The notes under the pieces: model-generated
Told to the model about the DNA's origin: nothing
Database searches by the model: none
Seen by the model: the letters and a program-made list of their open reading frames with translations, nothing else
NCBI GenBank assembly: GCA_016700135.1
Contig: CP065004.1
Coordinates: 1,410,001 to 1,442,000, forward strand
From: Candidatus Saccharimonadota bacterium
GTDB taxonomy: Bacteria > Patescibacteriota > Microgenomatia > UBA1406 > GWC2-37-13
Direction of reading: 5' to 3'
DNA: 32,000 bases
In this document: piece by piece, positions 2,866 to 31,271 of the stretch
Layout of the letters: each line of letters begins with the position of its first letter
Position numbering within the stretch: the first letter of the stretch is position 1
Translations under genes and position numbers: made by a program

Positions 2866-2893
2866 CTGGATCCCGGATCAAGTCCGGGATGAC
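2866..2893 (-). repeat. Hairpin repeat X, copy X1
   Basis: Plus strand CTGGATCCCGGATCAAGTCCGGGATGAC is the reverse complement of GTCATCCCGGACTTGATCCGGGATCCAG. It has an 8-bp stem ATCCCGGA/TCCGGGAT and loop CTTGA. It is 28/28 identical to copy X2 at 26749-26776. Intergenic. Confidence 0.85.
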
Positions 2894-3860: not shown

Positions 3861-3918
3861 GTATCTTGAGAAGATCCCGAACGATCCGCCAGCCGGCGGA
3901 CGGGAAGACAGGAGATAC
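3861..3918 (-). repeat. Nested three-tier hairpin (repeat variant Y, copy Y1) just 3' of rpsI
   Basis: Minus strand: GTATCT-cctgtct-TCCCG-TCCGCC-ggct-GGCGGA-tcgtt-CGGGA-tcttctca-AGATAC. Bases 3884-3903 are the exact reverse complement of 24210-24229. Confidence 0.7.
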
Positions 3919-10357: not shown

Positions 10358-11644
10358 CTACAACGTGAATCTGTCATAGTTTTTCATCACCAGCTGAGAT
10401 TCGATCTTCTTGAACGTTTCAAGAACAACAGACACTACGATAAGGATTCCCGTTCCTCCGATAATCAAATTCTGAAGTCCTGTCACGGAAGACATAATAG
10501 CCGGAAGGATTGCGATAAGTCCTAAGAATACCGCACCGAATGTCGTAATTTTATATACAACACTCTGCAGATAGTGTTTGGTCGCCGATCCTGGGCGAAT
10601 ACCGGGGATAAATCCTCCGTGCTTCTGGATTTCTTCAGCTATTTTTTCCGGATTGAAGACGATGATAGTGTAGAAGAATGTAAAGGCAACGACAAGTATG
10701 AAATACACTGAGTTATACAAAACGCCGTCTGGAGTGAATGAAGTTGCTAATGCCGTCCCGATATTTGCCAGTGTCTGGTTCGGGACATAGCGCACGAAAT
10801 TACCGATAATCTGCGGGAAGAGAACAAAGGATACCGCAAAGATGATCGGAATAACCCCTGCCTGATTCAGCTTCAGGGGCAAAAAGTTTGTCGCTCCCTG
10901 ATACATTTTATTTCCCTTAATACGCCTTGCATAATATACGGGGATCTTGCGGACCGCTTCGTTGATAAATACAACAGCCGCAATAACCACAAGCGTCAGC
11001 GCCAAAAAGATTATGATATTGAGTGCAATTTCTGAATTGAATGTGGTGATTGTCCTTCCGATAAGTACAGGAATACGTCCGACGATACCGGCAAAAATAA
11101 GAATTGAGATTCCGTTTCCGAGTCCGAATTCCGTGAGAAGTTCACCAAGCCAGACCAAAATAAAAGTACCGGCAAGAAGCGTCAGTACGAAAGAGAAAAA
11201 CTCGATCGGCGACAACACATCAATAATCTGCTGATTTCTCAGAAGCACATAAATACCGACTGCCTGAACAAGAGTAAGCGGAACAGTCAGAAATCTCGTG
11301 TATTGATTTATCTTGAATCGCCCGTACTCTCCCTCTTTTGATAAAGCTTCAAGTTGCGGCACGACCATGGTAACAAGCTGCATAATAATGGAGGCATTAA
11401 TGTATGGAGAAAGTCCTAAAGCCATAACTGAGAAATTGACTAAGGTGCCTCCTGAAAAAATATCAAGGAGTGAAAGAAACTGACTTTGCTCAAAGAGTGC
11501 CTGCAGTCTTGAAAGGTCAATCGCAGGTACCGGAAGGTACGCAAATATTCGGAAAATAAGAATGATGAGAAATGTGATTCCTGTCTTTCGTCTCAAAGCA
11601 GGATCTTTTATGAGTGATTGAAATTTTTGAGCTATATCTTTCAT
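10358..11644 (-). CDS. secY: Preprotein translocase subunit SecY
   Basis: 428 aa, multi-TM. ...[15 protein letters not shown]..., ...[16 protein letters not shown]... and ...[13 protein letters not shown]. 4-nt overlap with rplO, canonical position. Confidence 0.95.
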
Positions 11645-23674: not shown

Positions 23675-26600
23675 GTGACCACTATGGCAACCGACTCGGT
23701 AAAACTGAATACATCGCAACAGCAGGCTGTCGAATACCACAAAGGACCGCTTCTTATTGTGGCCGGAGCCGGTACCGGCAAAACGACTACACTCGTCGAA
23801 AAAATCAAGTATCTCATCAAGAATGACCATGCAAAGCCTGAGGAAATTCTTTGCCTGACTTTCACCGACAAAGCGGCCTATGAAATGGAAGAACGTGTAG
23901 ACCGTGCCATGCCGTACGGATATTTTCAGATGTGGATCTCGACATTTCACAAGTTTGCAGACGAAATCCTGCGCGACGATATTTATCATCTCGGACTTAA
24001 TCCAGGTTATGATCTGATGACTCAGGCACAGTCAATCCTCTTTCTCAAAAAAAATCTCTTTCACCTCAATCTCAAATACTACCGTCCTGTCAGCAATCCC
24101 ACAAAATTTGTCGAAGGGCTGCTGCAGCATTTCTCCAGGCTTCATGATGAAGATATTTCTCCTGAGGAGTATAGTAAGTGGGTAAAAAAACTTTCGAAAT
24201 ATTCTCATTCCGTCCGCCGGCTGGCGGATGATCCGGAATCCAGGAACAAAAAAACTGGATCCCTGGTCATGCCTGGGATGACAACGGAACAAAATATAAG
24301 CACTGAAGAAATCCAGCAATACCAGGAACTTTCCGATGCATACGCTACCTATCAAAAGCTCAAAATCGAACATGACGTCATGGATTTTGACGATCTTATT
24401 TATTATCTGATCAAACTTTTCCGGGAAAGACCGAATGTTTTAAAGCAGTATCAAAACAAATTTAAGTATGTATTGGTTGACGAATTCCAGGATACGAATA
24501 TCGCACAGTACGAACTCATAAAGCTCCTCTGTCCCATAAAAACCAATCCGAATTTGACCGTCGTCGGAGATGATTCTCAGGCAATCTATAAATTCCGCGG
24601 AGCATCTGTCTCCAACATTATGACCTTCATGGAGGACTATCCGCAGGCAAAGCAGATAAGTCTTGTAGATAATTACCGATCCAATCAAACCATACTTGAT
24701 CATGCCTATAATCTCATCCAAAACAATAATCCCGATACCCTTGAAAGTAAATTGGGTATCTCAAAAGAGCTGGTCGGACATAAAAAAAATATAAAAGAAG
24801 CCGTACAGTTTGAGTTGTTTGCACACGGTGATCAGGAAGCGGATTGGATTGCAGAGTGTATCGCCGGTTACTTGCAGGATAAAACCTATACCTTCCAGGA
24901 TTTTGCAATTTTGGTAAGAGCGAACAATCACAGCGATCCGATCATCAATGCCTTGAAGCGTGAAGGTATTCCCTTTCAGTTTTTAGGGCCGGGAACGTTA
25001 TTTAAGCAACCTGAGGTCAAAGATCTGATCGCTTATCTGCAAGTTCTCGCTGATCTGAATGATACAGTTTCACTATACCGCGTTCTTTCCATGGATCATT
25101 TCGGAATTGATGAACAGGACCTGGTTCTCTATCTCTCCTTTGCGAAAAAAATTTCCCTTTCTCTTTTCCAGTCACTTGAAGTGGCACTTTCCTTTTTCCA
25201 TGAAGATTGGTGGAGAGAGGAGTTTGAAGTTTATCGCGAACATTTACCGCTCGTAAAAGAAGAAACAAAAGAGAAACTAATCCAGATAATCTCCATGATA
25301 AAAAAGCATCTCACCCGACTCCGCAAGGATTCAGCCGGTGAGATCGTGTTCCAGTTCCTGGAAGATACCGAATACCTCAAGAAACTCAGCAATCCTGAAA
25401 ATGAGTATGATCAGCGAAGAACATTGAACATAACGAAGTTTTTCCAGAAACTAAAAAGTATGGAGAATGAAATTGAAGACAGTTCGGTTTTTGCCGCAGT
25501 CGAGTATATCAATATGAGTCTGGAGATGGGTGAATCTCCTTTGGCATCCGAGTCTGATGCGGTTCAGACGAATGCTGTAAATATTCTCACGGTGCACGGT
25601 GCAAAAGGTTTGGAGTTTCCTGTCGTTTTTCTCCCGAATCTTATAAACGGCCGTTTTCCTACCCGCCGCAGACGGGAACAGATTCCGATACCTGATGCTC
25701 TGATAAAGGAGACAATGCCGAGCGGAGATTATCATATTCAGGAAGAAAGGCGGCTGTTTTATGTGGGGATCACCCGTGCAAAAGACAGGCTCTTTTTGTC
25801 CGCTTCTGAAATATACGGTGAAGGAGTACGGAAACAACGCATATCGCCGTTTGTAGCCGAAACAATCGGTGCCGAAAAAGTCACCGGCAAATCCGCAAAG
25901 CAATCCGAACAAAAAGAACAGCTATCCATTTTTGATTTTAAGAAAAAGGAAGAAGATCCTCCGATACCAATCCCGACCGAGGTTAAAAATCTTTCATACA
26001 GCCAGATCAGTACCTATGAACTCTGTCCCCTGAAATACAAATATCAGTACGTACTGAAAATCCCGACAGGACCCCACGGTGCGGCTTCATTCGGAAGCTC
26101 TGTGCACAACGCTCTGCAGAAGTTCTATCAGTTGTTTACGAAAGACAATGAAGTCGGGCTCACACATCTTCTGAATCTGCTTGAATCTTCCTGGATCCCG
26201 GTCGGCTATACCTCCCGGGAGGAACAGACGAAACAAAAAGAAGAAGCACGTCAGATGCTCGAAAACTATTTTCATTCTTTTCATACTCCTGAGATTGCAG
26301 TCAAAGATCTGGAGAAACTCTTCAAAATCAAAGTAGGAAGTGATGTATGTCTTACCGGAAAAATTGATCGGGTGGATGAAAAGGCTGACGGAGCGATCGA
26401 GATCATCGACTACAAAACCGGCAACATGCCTGATGAAAAGAAACTCAGGAAAGATATGCAGCTTGCCATATATGCAATGGCTGCAAATGACTACGGATTG
26501 TATCGCAAACCGATTGAAAAAATTAACCTTTCCTTCTACTATCTCGCCCATCGTGAAAAGGTAACGGTTACAAGAAACGAAGAAGATATTCACGATGTGA

Positions 26601-26748: not shown

Positions 26749-26776
26749 GTCATCCCGGACTTGATCCGGGATCCAG
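26749..26776 (+). repeat. Hairpin repeat X, copy X2
   Basis: GTCATCCCGGACTTGATCCGGGATCCAG, 36 nt after the helicase stop. Identical to X1. Followed by a half copy, ATCCTGAACTTTGA (26781-26794). Confidence 0.85.
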
Positions 26777-26791
26777 TGTAATCCTGAACTT

Positions 26792-26815
26792 TGAGCCAAA
26801 GGCTCATCGTTTTTT
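26792..26815 (+). terminator. Weak intrinsic terminator candidate after the helicase gene
   Basis: TGAGCC-aaa-GGCTCA followed by TCGTTTTTT. The stem is only 6 bp. Confidence 0.4.
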
Positions 26816-26824
26816 GGACGGGTT

Positions 26825-27544
26825 TCAGGATCTTCTATACCTCAACACTACTTCATCATCCAGTTTCTCGACATTCAGAAGTTCAAACTGAGGCACTGCA
26901 TCGGAAGGGAACAAAATTCCTTCAGTCATCGTGAGAGTTTTTCCCGGTAGCGATCCGAAGATCTTCGGTGCAATTGTGAGATGGACTTCGTCGAGTACAT
27001 TCTCTTGAAGTAACTGCGCGATCAGTGTCGGGCCGCCGTCAATGAATACGTTTTGATGACCTTTTGAGTTGAGATAACGGATAAGATCTGCAATCTGTAC
27101 ATGCCCTGCGCCTTCTGTGACCTTTTCAACATTAAATGCCTGACTTACTTCACCGGTAATTTCTGTAGATGAATTCGTCAAAATCGTCGGTTTATATCCG
27201 TGATCGTTTGCAAGTTTCGATGCCAACTCTTCATCAGGGGAGGTTGTCAGAATGATAAACTCAGGAACACCTTCTTTGCCGATCTCTTTCCTGAATCCCT
27301 GATACATCTCATCATTGATCGTACGGATCGTGTATTTTCCGAATTGCATCGCGGTATTTTTTGCATCCACGATCGCATCGGCATGAGCTCTCAGATAGGT
27401 AAAATATTCGTAATCCTTTTTTGATCCGATCGGCCAGTATCCTTTCTCTTTTACGATAATCTTCCCGTCGATACTCGATACAAAACTGGTGAACATATAC
27501 GGCCGGTTTGCGGGTTTTTGAAAATCAAATGGTTGACGTGTCAT
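26825..27544 (-). CDS. RibD C-terminal-domain / dihydrofolate-reductase-like reductase
   Basis: The ORF track extends to 27616 through hairpin copy X4. I use the Met at 27542-27544 (MTRQPFDFQK...). Contains ...FVSSIDGKIIVKE... and ...VFIDGGPTLIAQLLQENVLDEVHLTIAPKIFG..., typical of RibD_C-family reductases. Confidence 0.8.
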   Translation of the reverse strand: MTRQPFDFQKPANRPYMFTSFVSSIDGKIIVKEKGYWPIGSKKDYEYFTYLRAHADAIVDAKNTAMQFGKYTIRTINDEMYQGFRKEIGKEGVPEFIILTTSPDEELASKLANDHGYKPTILTNSSTEITGEVSQAFNVEKVTEGAGHVQIADLIRYLNSKGHQNVFIDGGPTLIAQLLQENVLDEVHLTIAPKIFGSLPGKTLTMTEGILFPSDAVPQFELLNVEKLDDEVVLRYRRS

Positions 27545-27555
27545 GTTGTTTTTTA

Positions 27556-27583
27556 CTGGTTCCCAGGTCAAGCCTGGGATAAC
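27556..27583 (-). repeat. Hairpin repeat X, copy X4 (slightly degenerate)
   Basis: Plus strand CTGGTTCCCAGGTCAAGCCTGGGATAAC is the reverse complement of GTTATCCCAGGCTTGACCTGGGAACCAG. Confidence 0.8.
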
Positions 27584-27611
27584 AGACAAGTAAATTAAAT
27601 ATATTATAACT

Positions 27612-27639
27612 GTCATCCTGAACTTGATTCAGGATCCAG
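27612..27639 (+). repeat. Hairpin repeat X, copy X3
   Basis: GTCATCCTGAACTTGATTCAGGATCCAG (stem ATCCTGAA/TTCAGGAT), 2 nt from the stop codon of the GIY-YIG gene. Confidence 0.85.
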
Positions 27640-27641
27640 TT

Positions 27642-27932
27642 TTATTTTATCATTTCTTTATAAAGATCATTCCATTGCGGATTTTTCGACTCGATTAGCT
27701 CTAATTTCCAGGCTCTTTTCCAAGCTTTTAACTGTTTTTCACGCCTTAAAGCTCGATTTACATCATTAAATACTTCATAATAAACGAGAATATGTACGTT
27801 ATACTGAGCAGTAAATCCTTTCACTATTTTATTTCTATGTTCCCAAGTACGTTTAATCAGATCAGAAGTAACTCCAATATAAAGTGTTCCGTTGCGTTGA
27901 CTTGCCAATATGTATACAAAATATGTTCCCAT
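27642..27932 (-). CDS. Small stand-alone GIY-YIG nuclease-domain protein (COG2827/UPF0213-like)
   Basis: The ORF track extends to 27974 through hairpin copy X5. I use the Met at 27930-27932: MGTYFVYILASQRNGTLYIGVTSDLIKRTWEHRN...REKQLKAWKRAWKLELIE. It has GIY (YFVYIL), YIG (LYIGVT), R..EH and E..LK motifs. Confidence 0.85.
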   Translation of the reverse strand: MGTYFVYILASQRNGTLYIGVTSDLIKRTWEHRNKIVKGFTAQYNVHILVYYEVFNDVNRALRREKQLKAWKRAWKLELIESKNPQWNDLYKEMIK

Positions 27933-27939
27933 TATTGTG

Positions 27940-27967
27940 CTGGATCCCAGGTCAAGCCTGGGATGAC
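27940..27967 (-). repeat. Hairpin repeat X, copy X5
   Basis: Plus strand CTGGATCCCAGGTCAAGCCTGGGATGAC is the reverse complement of GTCATCCCAGGCTTGACCTGGGATCCAG (stem ATCCCAGG/CCTGGGAT), 7 nt upstream of the GIY-YIG ATG. Confidence 0.85.
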
Positions 27968-28016
27968 AATGCACCTGTAAAGAATTTCAAGCGGATTATA
28001 AACATTAACTTCTCCC

Positions 28017-30105: not shown

Positions 30106-31050
30106 TTAACTTACATTGCCTCTAGCTTCAATAAGATCAACAACATTTGCCCATACTTTCTTTCCGATAATTTTCTCGGACTGCGGTGATACTTCAAAAG
30201 CAATATTTACTTCTTCAAAGTAATAATTGCCTTTCACATCCCTCACAAAGTCAATACCTGCAAGATCTCCTTGCACCGCATCAAGTACGCATTTTGCATA
30301 CTGAACAAGTCGTGTATCAATACTATCATATTTTGTGATTGACCCTCCCCTGCTGAGATTTGTCAGAAAGGAATGCTGCGGTGCATTGCGATAATAGGCT
30401 TTCTCTACTATCGGCTCACCCGTCTTTGCGTCACGGGATACGATAATACGGATATCCCTATATCGGTTTTTCAGTTTCTTTTCTTTTTCTATGGTTTTTT
30501 GGATCATGATCGGTTCTTCATTGGAGAAGGAATGAAGAAGAAGTCTGAGTTCACGCTCATTGGTGACATGAAATACTCCTTCTCCGCGGCCGGAATCCGG
30601 TTTTTTGATTACACAGCTTCCGTCCTTTTGGATCATTTTCATTGCCTTCGATTCTGCAATATTTTTGTCAAAAGCGACACATGTTTCCGGGTTTATGTCC
30701 GTTTTAATATTATTCTCTCTGAAATATTTTTCTACCTGCAGGTGGGTTAGGTATTTGTCCTGTCCCATAATGATGTAGTGTAAACCGTTTAAAATGGGAA
30801 CATTTTTGTTTTGGTATTCGGTCAGGTATGTCAGATATGCCGCAAAAATCGGCTCTGACAGTGACGACAATTCCGGTCTTGCCAAAATGACATCAGGTGT
30901 TTCTCTTTTCGTCATTTTTTTGCCGTACAGCACCCGCCTCGGATCGATAATCCTGACACTGTGCCCGCGTTTTGTGGCAGTTCTGATAATACATTGTTCG
31001 ACACGTCCCACTTTGTCGTGTTTGAGAATATGGATATTCAATTTTTTCAT
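30106..31050 (-). CDS. ATP-grasp ligase, RimK-like (alpha-L-glutamate-ligase family)
   Basis: The ORF track extends to 31146. The likely start is MKKLNIHIL... (31048-31050) or MITMKK (31059). Contains ...VIKKPDSGRGEGVFHV..., ...DIRIIVSRD..., ...FLTNLSRGGS... and ...AGIDFVRDVKGNYYFEEVN..., matching RimK-type ATP-grasp blocks. Confidence 0.75.
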   Translation of the reverse strand: MKKLNIHILKHDKVGRVEQCIIRTATKRGHSVRIIDPRRVLYGKKMTKRETPDVILARPELSSLSEPIFAAYLTYLTEYQNKNVPILNGLHYIIMGQDKYLTHLQVEKYFRENNIKTDINPETCVAFDKNIAESKAMKMIQKDGSCVIKKPDSGRGEGVFHVTNERELRLLLHSFSNEEPIMIQKTIEKEKKLKNRYRDIRIIVSRDAKTGEPIVEKAYYRNAPQHSFLTNLSRGGSITKYDSIDTRLVQYAKCVLDAVQGDLAGIDFVRDVKGNYYFEEVNIAFEVSPQSEKIIGKKVWANVVDLIEARGNVS

Positions 31051-31271
31051 AGTAATCATACAATTTAAAACTGACCGATTGTCATTATATTTATTCTTAT
31101 TTTGAGCGGAGTTACCAATACTATAAGATAAATGCTGAAAAATCAAGTTGTATTATTTGAACAGTTTTGATACCCTTTATTCAGAATATTTTTTCCAAAT
31201 TATTCCAAACCCATGGTGTAACAAATCTTTCTACAACCAACCTTCATTATTGATAATTTATTTTTACTCCT

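Follow-up and report, generated by a model that had tools for sequence, protein, structure and literature searches.

A GIY-YIG nuclease gene between inverted hairpin repeats in a candidate-phylum bacterium: a probable further Ssn/SRM example with indirect signs of mobility

Ssn proteins are single-domain GIY-YIG nucleases that act on the hairpin repeats known as NTS and SRM (Chenal et al., Nat Commun 2025; PMC11893778). In that work the dRS3 repeat of Neisseria was re-defined as an oriented NTS of about 28 nt, CGTCATTCCCGCGMAVGCGGGAATCYRG, and ssnA (NMV_0044) was described as encoding 94 amino acids with one GIY-YIG domain, CDD cd10448 (GIY-YIG_unchar_3). Here we analyse a 32,000-nt stretch of contig CP065004.1 (positions 1,410,001 to 1,442,000; called the window throughout), in which a gene for a 96-amino-acid GIY-YIG nuclease stands between two inverted copies of a 28-nt hairpin. 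Very probably this locus is an Ssn-SRM module, with an ssn gene, inverted cognate hairpins and further copies scattered in the genome. We refer to the gene as ssn and to the hairpin-gene-hairpin unit as the cassette.

The published system provides a detailed frame for this locus (PMC11893778). In RefSeq, SRM were found near 71% of ssnA homologs and on both sides of 42%, and an ssnA homolog was present in 81% of the genomes with more than 200 SRMs; SRM elements are abundant in Rickettsia, and 2% of the NTS of N. meningitidis are intragenic. Purified SsnA binds NTS only as single-stranded DNA (ssDNA), is inactive on double-stranded DNA (dsDNA), on RNA and on the reverse strand, and makes its cut upstream of the repeat, at a distance of a few nucleotides. 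Cutting depends most on the three nucleotides 5' of the palindrome and binding on the C directly 3' of it, and cleavage is lost in the Y6A, Y17A and E64A mutants. Three further homologs, one of them from Wolbachia, act alike on their own repeats, making four in all. SsnA modulates transformation in N. meningitidis. The authors reported the NTS-ssnA-NTS layout, drew the analogy with IS200/IS605 and with REP/BIME, suggested domestication, left mobility without demonstration and proposed an ssDNA-cutting toolbox. In the literature collection searched, no later work on Ssn mobility was found, and a Coxiella QMITE paper was rejected as an earlier description, as it contains neither a GIY-YIG protein nor a matching sequence.

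An earlier, sequence-only reading of this DNA had proposed that the nuclease and the hairpins are partners, in the manner of REP/RAYT and with a GIY-YIG enzyme. This inference was right and is already contained in the 2025 paper (PMC11893778), and we reproduced the association here; the same publication outdates the accompanying statement that stand-alone GIY-YIG proteins of the COG2827 type lack an assigned role. The coordinates given for the open reading frame (ORF) and for the hairpins X3, X5 and X4 were all exact, including the distances of 2, 7 and 28 nt, and a re-check of the sequence bore out the 356-bp unit at 27612-27967 with the gene between 28-nt inverted hairpins. Running the proposed pattern scan on the 32-kb window yielded 6 copies, compared with 0.00 in 100 dinucleotide-preserving shuffles.

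In gene orientation the cassette reads GTCAT..CCAG - 7 nt - ATG...TAA - 2 nt - CTGG..ATGAC, and the 28-nt hairpin follows the plan GTC, 8-bp stem, CTTGA, stem, CCAG. Eight copies were found in the window (six of 28 nt and two loop-extended; Table 1), none of them within the dense ribosomal-protein operon. For five of the 28-mers, ssDNA folding gave a 5-nt loop on a stem of 7-8 bp, with energies between -6.4 and -8.4 kcal/mol (z between -3.3 and -4.4); the sixth, X6, is weaker (Table 1). X4 stands tail-to-tail with X3 across an AT-rich 28-nt spacer, 11 nt ahead of the true RibD_C start codon.

The 96-amino-acid protein matches Pfam GIY-YIG (PF01541) over residues 4-77 with E=1.5e-15 and contains no further domain. 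An identical protein is annotated as 'GIY-YIG nuclease family protein' in Candidatus Roizmanbacteria bacterium, a member of the Patescibacteria, or candidate phyla radiation (CPR), and at least 7,994 of the 8,000 matches listed in a protein search were homologs. Residues Y7, Y18, R28, E65 and N84 are invariant across 32 homologs; from a one-residue offset, not from an alignment, Y7, Y18 and E65 plausibly correspond to Y6, Y17 and E64 of the 94-amino-acid SsnA. The AlphaFold model (pLDDT 93.6) has a beta-beta-alpha-alpha-beta-alpha-alpha-alpha order, and the nearest solved structures in a fold search were UPF0213 proteins (1zg2, E=2.5e-4; 1ywl) and the Slx1 nuclease domain (TM about 0.55), with no Ssn structure among the deposited folds matched. 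A search of PDB sequences with the protein returned no chain at E<=0.01. NCBIfam, PADLOC and PHROGs gave no meaningful family, the sole NCBIfam match being the group I intron endonuclease TIGR01453 at 17.8 bits against a 56-bit cutoff. These searches place the protein outside the catalogued defence and phage families.

The locus therefore displays traits of the Ssn class, namely a single-domain protein of 96 amino acids, the Tyr/Tyr/Glu residues and inverted SRM-type hairpins on both flanks. The published SRM search motif, HGTCWYN(0-2)YYVSBRHN(0-5)WNVSBRGN(0-2)RNCYNB, was hand-built from 29 genomes; X1 and X2 match it exactly (0.07 expected), and X3, X5, X4 and X6 miss it at inner-stem positions while having the termini and structure in common. 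The locus is very probably a further Ssn/SRM example, from a candidate-phylum bacterium and with a 28-nt CTTGA-loop hairpin subtype, and is largely explained by the published system. By analogy with the characterized homologs, we infer that the window protein acts on X-type hairpins as they do on their own repeats.

A second ssn gene shows the same arrangement. The paralog P0081, 69% identical to the window protein, lies on contig L005 (2787-3142) with its own hairpins, GTCATTCCCGACTTGATCGGGAATCCAG upstream and GTCATTCCCGTGAAAACGGGAATCCAG downstream. Two stem subtypes occur in the organism, ATCC(C/T) beside the window ssn and ATTCC beside P0081 and in the loop-extended hairpin Y1. This subtype split may reflect paralog-specific pairs of enzyme and hairpin.

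We next asked how general the association is, using a scan of species-representative genomes in which 594 of the 600 listed stretches encoded a relative and of which the best 80 loci were retained. The proteins of these 80 loci are 58-71% identical to the window protein, and their hosts include Legionella, Thiobacillus, Desulfobacterales, Planctomycetota, Nitrospirae, Ignavibacteria, Dehalococcoidia, Omnitrophota, Verrucomicrobiota, Saccharibacteria and others. Hairpins were called where the termini GTCAT and ATCCAG were present with at most one mismatch in total and at least six Watson-Crick pairs followed from the A of GTCAT; the density of such hairpins more than 300 nt from the gene in the same loci served as background and gave 0.006 expected per site. 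A correctly oriented hairpin lay within 80 nt upstream of the gene in 52 of the 80 loci, downstream in 44 and on both sides in 39. The enrichment beside GIY-YIG genes that the sequence-only reading had offered as a check is present at this 80-nt range (52/80 upstream and 44/80 downstream versus 0.006 expected per site). Downstream hairpins mostly begin 0-5 nt past the stop codon, and the exact Neisseria NTS stands beside the gene in 17 of the 80 loci. In addition, 41 relatives of the nuclease (41-63% identity) were found on IMG/VR viral-type contigs (L094-L134), with hairpins on both sides in 12 of the 39 examined. These contigs could be vectors of horizontal spread, or misclassified cellular DNA.

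To examine the stems, we collected repeats by their terminal motifs only, with no stem required (0.35 matches expected by chance), and obtained 21 distinct 28-mers and 60 distinct 27-mers. In the 28-mers 98.8% of cells were paired and compensatory double changes occurred in 6 of the 8 pairs, compared with 9-49% paired in slid-partner controls; GTC, the GA of the loop and CCAG were invariant. The paired stems, the compensatory changes and the fixed GTC and CCAG together argue for selection on the fold and on the non-palindromic flanks, with the sequence of the stem free to drift. The fixed GTC and CCAG are also the positions that are critical in the published mutational map of NTS cleavage and binding.

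Table 1. Coordinates of the ssn gene, its hairpins and the dispersed copies in the window
Feature	Coordinates	Strand	Description
ssn-like gene	27642..27932	minus	96 amino acids, single-domain GIY-YIG nuclease
X5, SRM-type hairpin	27940..27967	minus	GTCATCCCAGGCTTGACCTGGGATCCAG; 7 nt ahead of the ATG, on the gene's strand; ssDNA fold -8.1 kcal/mol, z=-3.6
X3, SRM-type hairpin	27612..27639	plus	GTCATCCTGAACTTGATTCAGGATCCAG; 2 nt past the stop codon, inverted relative to X5; -6.4 kcal/mol
X4, slightly degenerate hairpin	27556..27583	minus	GTTAT...GGGAACCAG; 2 mismatches; 28 nt outward of X3
Spacer, Vut_1 stop to X5	27968..28016	minus	92% identical to L002, versus 79% for adjoining Vut_1
Y1, loop-extended SRM hairpin in the helicase ORF	24204..24243	plus	CTCATTCC-GTCCGCCGGCTGGCGGAT-GATCC-GGAATCCAG; -11.3 kcal/mol
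X6, right half of the helicase doublet	24255..24282	minus	11 nt from Y1; stem mismatch; -4.4 kcal/mol, z=-1.5
X2, solo intergenic hairpin	26749..26776	plus	between the helicase and RibD_C genes, whose ends converge here
X1, solo intergenic hairpin	2866..2893	minus	sequence identical to X2; between two glycosyltransferase genes
Y2, degenerate loop-extended hairpin	3870..3909	minus	GTCTTCCC-GTCCGCCGGCTGGCGGAT-CGTTC-GGGATCTTC; between rpsI and a glycosyltransferase gene; -11.4 kcal/mol, z=-4.2

The gene block around the cassette allowed us to compare genomes with and without it. The order FolC - Vut_1 - ssn - RibD_C - helicase - EF-Tu - S10 is kept, apart from ssn itself, in nine relatives. Among them, L002/L003 carry the cassette (ssn 94% identical at the amino acid level), as do L090/L091 (80%) and L092/L093 (81%). 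It is absent from L086 and L087, whose Vut_1 proteins are 94% and 93% identical to that of the window and whose Vut_1-RibD_C spacers measure about 185 nt, and from L088 and L089, with 12-31 nt between the two genes. In 12.6 kb, 0-1 hairpins occur in the relatives that lack the cassette and 5-6 in the matching stretch of genomes that carry it. X3 is 100% identical in L002, L090/L091 and L092. No target-site duplication or exact insertion boundary was readable at the Vut_1-RibD_C junction, and because the L086 and L087 spacers resemble neither each other nor the window, insertion is indistinguishable from deletion there.

The cassette is also far less diverged than its surroundings. As a synonymous measure we took the fraction of differing codons among positions with an identical amino acid, window versus L002. 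The value for ssn was 3.3%, compared with 57% for FolC, 52% for Vut_1, 41% for L4, 39% each for the helicase and L3, 34% each for RibD_C and L2, 33% for S10 and 25% for EF-Tu, that is, roughly tenfold lower than in the nine flanking genes (25-57%). Third-position identity was 95% in ssn and 42-74% in the other genes. Nucleotide identity to L002 is 97-100% from about 28000 to 27560, with X4 in a tract of 95-98% identity, and decays on either side; the synonymous differences form a gradient, falling in Vut_1 from 61% to 33% toward the cassette and rising in RibD_C from 19% to 43% away from it. The same measure for ssn against L092 and L090 was 28%, and its synonymous sites are therefore not intrinsically frozen. 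These comparisons suggest that the cassette was exchanged between the window and L002 lineages long after the genomes diverged, and that the spacer between the Vut_1 stop and X5 travels with it. Such a gradient could stem from co-conversion at a homing-like event and equally from the import of a segment by ordinary recombination.

In each pairwise comparison with L092 and L090, the ssn protein of the window is less conserved (80-81% identity) than Vut_1 (91-96%), and its synonymous divergence is also lower (28% versus 47-51%). This combination suggests that ssn is under relaxed or diversifying selection and that the gene is younger than its flanks. Individual hairpins differ between genomes as well: at the X2 site L002 has a 51-nt loop-extended variant with other flanks (11196-11246) in place of the plain 28-nt hairpin of the window, which indicates rapid turnover of individual hairpin copies.

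Hairpins also occur as head-to-head doublets with no gene between them. At the helicase site the sequence-only reading had described the 3' half of an X hairpin, an 11-nt spacer and a reverse-complement X; the spacer and the reverse-complement copy stand, but the supposed half is a complete loop-extended hairpin, Y1, with an outer stem ATTCCG/CGGAAT around an inner hairpin GTCCGCC-GGCT-GGCGGAT. Its counterpart Y2 was recovered as the inverted-repeat pair I1 with 24205-24240. The whole helicase doublet (24204-24282, Y1 plus X6) encodes an in-frame segment of 29 amino acids, ...SHSVRRLADDPESRNKKTGSLVMPGMTT..., which is present in the window, L002 and L003 and absent from L086, L088 and L089; L087 has other sequence there. 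L002 and L003 contain a second doublet of the same architecture and frame inside RibD_C (L002 10803-10891; ...CHAVRQLADDSESSDSISGSRIESGMT...), with one mismatch between the two. This RibD_C doublet is absent from the window, L086 and L087, and its boundaries are blurred by an accompanying replacement of six codons. The common plan is a loop-extended hairpin, an 11-nt spacer and a 28-nt hairpin, amounting to 29 codons that are translated as H-x-VR-x-LADD…GS…GMT, and each intragenic doublet combines one ATCC-type with one ATTCC-type hairpin.

Across all loci, the gaps between head-to-head hairpins are bimodal: 50 are of 2-107 nt and 48, which hold the gene, of 282-388 nt, with none between. A Thermodesulfobacteriota chromosome, OZ245366.1, carries two near-identical cassettes 124 kb apart (L038 4337-5910 and L045 4832-6033), both embedded in arrays of a 76-nt doublet with at least 16 copies in total. 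The 21-nt spacer of this doublet, TATTGGTTAACC followed directly by AGTTGAATA, equals the inner edges of the cassette joined together, the cassette reading ...CCAG-TATTATTTAACC-CG-ATG...TGA-GTAGGGGTTTCGCC-AGTTGAATA-CTGG...; the identity of the edges is 0.81-0.94, compared with a cross-locus 95th percentile of 0.56. In L075 (about 900-1010) the 107 nt between two head-to-head hairpins hold a truncated ssn, of which the first 20 or so codons (MNYCVYLFASKRNGTLYVGV...) are followed by unrelated sequence; the arrangement resembles a halfway stage from the full cassette to a doublet with no gene. Doublets can thus apparently be MITE-like (miniature inverted-repeat transposable element) internal-deletion derivatives of the cassette, and the L038/L045 arrays appear to be a MITE-like or BIME-like (bacterial interspersed mosaic element) amplification. 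The earlier suggestion that the helicase doublet is an empty version of the filled site gains general support from these deletion derivatives and from the bimodal gaps, but descent from the cassette is not shown for the doublet in the window.

Following the published homologs, the proposed mechanism would begin with the repeat folding into a hairpin once the DNA is single-stranded. The 96-amino-acid protein would bind the stem plus the fixed C directly 3' of it, and the fixed GTC 5' of the stem would guide hydrolysis a few nucleotides upstream of GTCAT. Only the strand reading GTCAT...CCAG would be cut, and neither dsDNA nor RNA. On each strand the predicted cut would lie at the 5' outer edge of the cassette, immediately beyond 27612 for the plus strand and immediately beyond 27967 for the minus strand; by analogy with SsnA, the minus-strand cut is expected at the X5-proximal end of the spacer between Vut_1 and X5. 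Spread would then proceed through host recombination or repair at nicked hairpins, either by homing-like gene conversion or by template switching, whether at replication forks or on ssDNA that enters the cell. Host repair is the most likely route, rather than transposase chemistry, because a hydrolytic GIY-YIG enzyme cannot rejoin DNA. In the Roizmanbacteria lineage the cassette appears to be exchangeable and is probably a selfish unit; that it is mobile is plausible but unproven. In CPR bacteria its role could plausibly be to control incoming ssDNA, as in Neisseria.

A more far-reaching reading, which we consider rather less likely than not, is that the CPR cassette is an active selfish element that spreads in a homing-like manner at nicked ssDNA hairpins and sheds MITE-like in-frame doublets, such as those in the helicase and RibD_C genes. 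The 'mobile unit' of the sequence-only reading receives indirect support from the presence and absence of the cassette, its roughly tenfold lower divergence, the bimodal gaps and the L038/L045 deletion derivatives, but movement itself is unproven. Several observations weigh against the assignment and against mobility. Both gene-flanking hairpins, X3 and X5, miss the hand-made SRM motif at inner-stem positions; membership with SsnA and cd10448 was judged from the published description; and cleavage by the window protein, with its CTTGA-loop subtype, is a prediction from homologs. Precise empty sites with readable boundaries were not found in the L086 and L087 spacers. The edges of the window helicase doublet do not match those of the cassette significantly (0.6 over 10 nt), and its hairpins are of mixed subtype (left ATTCC, right ATCC), whereas both cassette flanks are ATCC. 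Ordinary homologous recombination, in a tract that covers the cassette by chance, could also explain the low divergence from L002. To our knowledge, GIY-YIG enzymes have no strand-transfer activity; the superfamily is hydrolytic, and we know of no covalent intermediate that would allow rejoining.

A different possibility, which we regard as rather doubtful, is a domesticated and immobile host system, in which the hairpins mark ssDNA for restriction or modulation while it enters the cell or is replicated, for example during natural transformation; ordinary recombination and deletion would in that case account for the presence, absence and low divergence. The modulation of transformation by SsnA in N. 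meningitidis and the domestication already proposed there (PMC11893778) speak for such a system, as do the occurrence of the cassette at one Vut_1/RibD_C junction in the window, L002/L003, L090/L091 and L092/L093, which vertical inheritance with losses predicts, and a high-identity tract that reaches into the flanking genes as in a normal recombination import. Yet 58-71% identity across unrelated phyla, together with the 41 viral-type contigs, points to frequent horizontal spread; two paralogs in one genome, each with its own hairpins, and the amplified deletion-derivative doublets of L038/L045 also fit poorly with immobility, and in-frame doublets that are new in genes are hard to explain without a copying mechanism. 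An IS200/IS605-like peel-and-paste transposon, with the GIY-YIG protein as transposase and the hairpins as ends, is very improbable. It would account for an ssDNA-hairpin-specific nuclease and a hairpin-flanked gene, and the analogy was drawn by Chenal et al. (PMC11893778), but the ends are inverted, leaving one cleavable hairpin per strand where IS200/IS605 ends lie on the same strand, the chemistry is hydrolytic, no target-site signature was found at the RibD_C and Vut_1-RibD_C sites, and there is no HUH domain. With hairpins inverted on opposite strands and no HUH domain, the locus was not assigned to the IS200/IS605 family. That the hairpins are terminators or RNA regulatory elements whose proximity to GIY-YIG genes is incidental is almost certainly wrong: X3 is followed on the plus strand by a T-rich run and was flagged as terminator-like, but it was the only one of four copies in the scanned stretch to be flagged, through a chance T-run, and a conventional terminator lies separately at 26792-26806. 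Moreover, the GTC and CCAG flanks are invariant, the repeats occur in both orientations and inside ORFs, none matches Rfam, SsnA does not bind RNA (PMC11893778), and the association with the gene is about 100-fold over background; we therefore rejected this reading as effectively refuted by the association statistics. Rfam and tRNA scans of the window were negative for RNA families, introns and tRNAs, and by these scans an intron-borne homing endonuclease or a known structured RNA was ruled out.

The selfish-element reading would have consequences beyond this locus. The partnership of ssn and hairpins has been known since 2025, and the comparative evidence for mobility and the in-frame intragenic copies go beyond the published account (PMC11893778). 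The Roizmanbacteria series, with syntenic genomes that have or lack the cassette, a cassette about tenfold less diverged than its flanks and polymorphic in-frame doublets, is a natural experiment on whether NTS-ssnA-NTS is or was mobile. If the cassette is such an element, no earlier prokaryotic mobile element would have been driven by a hydrolytic GIY-YIG nuclease that stands alone. Mobility, if demonstrated, would represent a further mode of mobilisation, combining a hydrolytic ssDNA nuclease with host repair, and would explain how these hairpins reach hundreds of copies. The window protein with the ATCC-stem/CTTGA-loop hairpin, and P0081 with the ATTCC-stem hairpin, are candidate enzyme/hairpin pairs for an ssDNA-cutting toolbox.

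Some observations concern annotation and the neighbouring genes. Mechanical ORF calls read through the hairpins, producing a spurious 110-amino-acid, GTG-start form of the nuclease (27642-27974; MHCHPRLDLGSS...) and a 263-amino-acid RibD_C call (26825-27616) with a false N-terminal extension (MTVIIYLIYLSVIPGLTWEP...); orthologs place the true RibD_C start at 27544 (MTRQPFDF). Contamination of protein databases by hairpin-derived peptides from such calls is likely. The gene upstream of the FolC-like one differs between lineages: it encodes an ATP-grasp protein (YheCD/RimK-like; window 30106-31146, L001 118-1056) in that of the window and a second FolC-like Mur-ligase paralog (L002 6405-7793) in L002/L003; this difference in the folate/queuosine block is unrelated to the hairpins.

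The locus can be set beside several known families. UPF0213 proteins (YhbQ/BH0048-type) and the Slx1 domain resemble the window protein as small GIY-YIG domains with the nearest folds; they differ in that flanking hairpin repeats have not been reported there and in that no PDB sequence matched at E<=0.01. The homing endonucleases I-TevI and I-BmoI and the Seg proteins share the GIY-YIG domain and a selfish logic of cleavage followed by copying through host repair, and the divergence gradient round the cassette resembles the co-conversion of flanking markers. Those enzymes, by contrast, have a separate DNA-binding domain, a long asymmetric dsDNA site and no flanking hairpin repeats. The window protein was not classed among the GIY-YIG homing endonucleases, having a single domain, a TIGR01453 score below cutoff and no Rfam intron in the window. 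Rickettsia palindromic elements (RPEs) are palindromic repeats that are translated in-frame within conserved genes, at variable surface or linker positions; they are about 100-150 bp long and have no assigned nuclease. The in-frame doublets of the window and L002 are reminiscent of RPEs and of gene-inserting MITEs, although the window doublets are shorter.

Closer likenesses are found with the REP/REPIN-RAYT systems (REP, repetitive extragenic palindrome; RAYT, the associated transposase, also TnpA_REP; Nunvar 2010; Bertels & Rainey 2011; PMC3337134). There, too, a nuclease gene lies between inverted hairpins recognised as ssDNA, and REPIN-like inverted doublets with short spacers are amplified, which has its parallel in the BIME-like clusters of L038/L045. 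RAYTs are HUH enzymes with a covalent tyrosine and termini GTAG/CGTC, whereas the locus described here has a hydrolytic GIY-YIG enzyme and termini GTCAT/CCAG; RAYTs are described as predominantly single-copy and inherited vertically, whereas a genome can hold more than one copy of ssn, and ssn is similar across phyla. With a GIY-YIG in place of an HUH enzyme (Y1, IS200-like), the locus falls outside the REP-RAYT/REPIN class. The nearest relative remains the Ssn/NTS system of N. meningitidis, which has in common with the window locus a GIY-YIG protein of about 95 amino acids, inverted flanking GTCAT...ATCCAG hairpins, a co-varying stem and dispersed copies. The differences lie in the hairpin, which in the window has 28 nt, an ATCC(C/T) stem and a CTTGA loop and in Neisseria is of the 27-nt ATTCCCGCG-GAAA type, in the host, which here belongs to the CPR/Patescibacteria (Roizmanbacteria), and in the copies that lie in-frame within genes.

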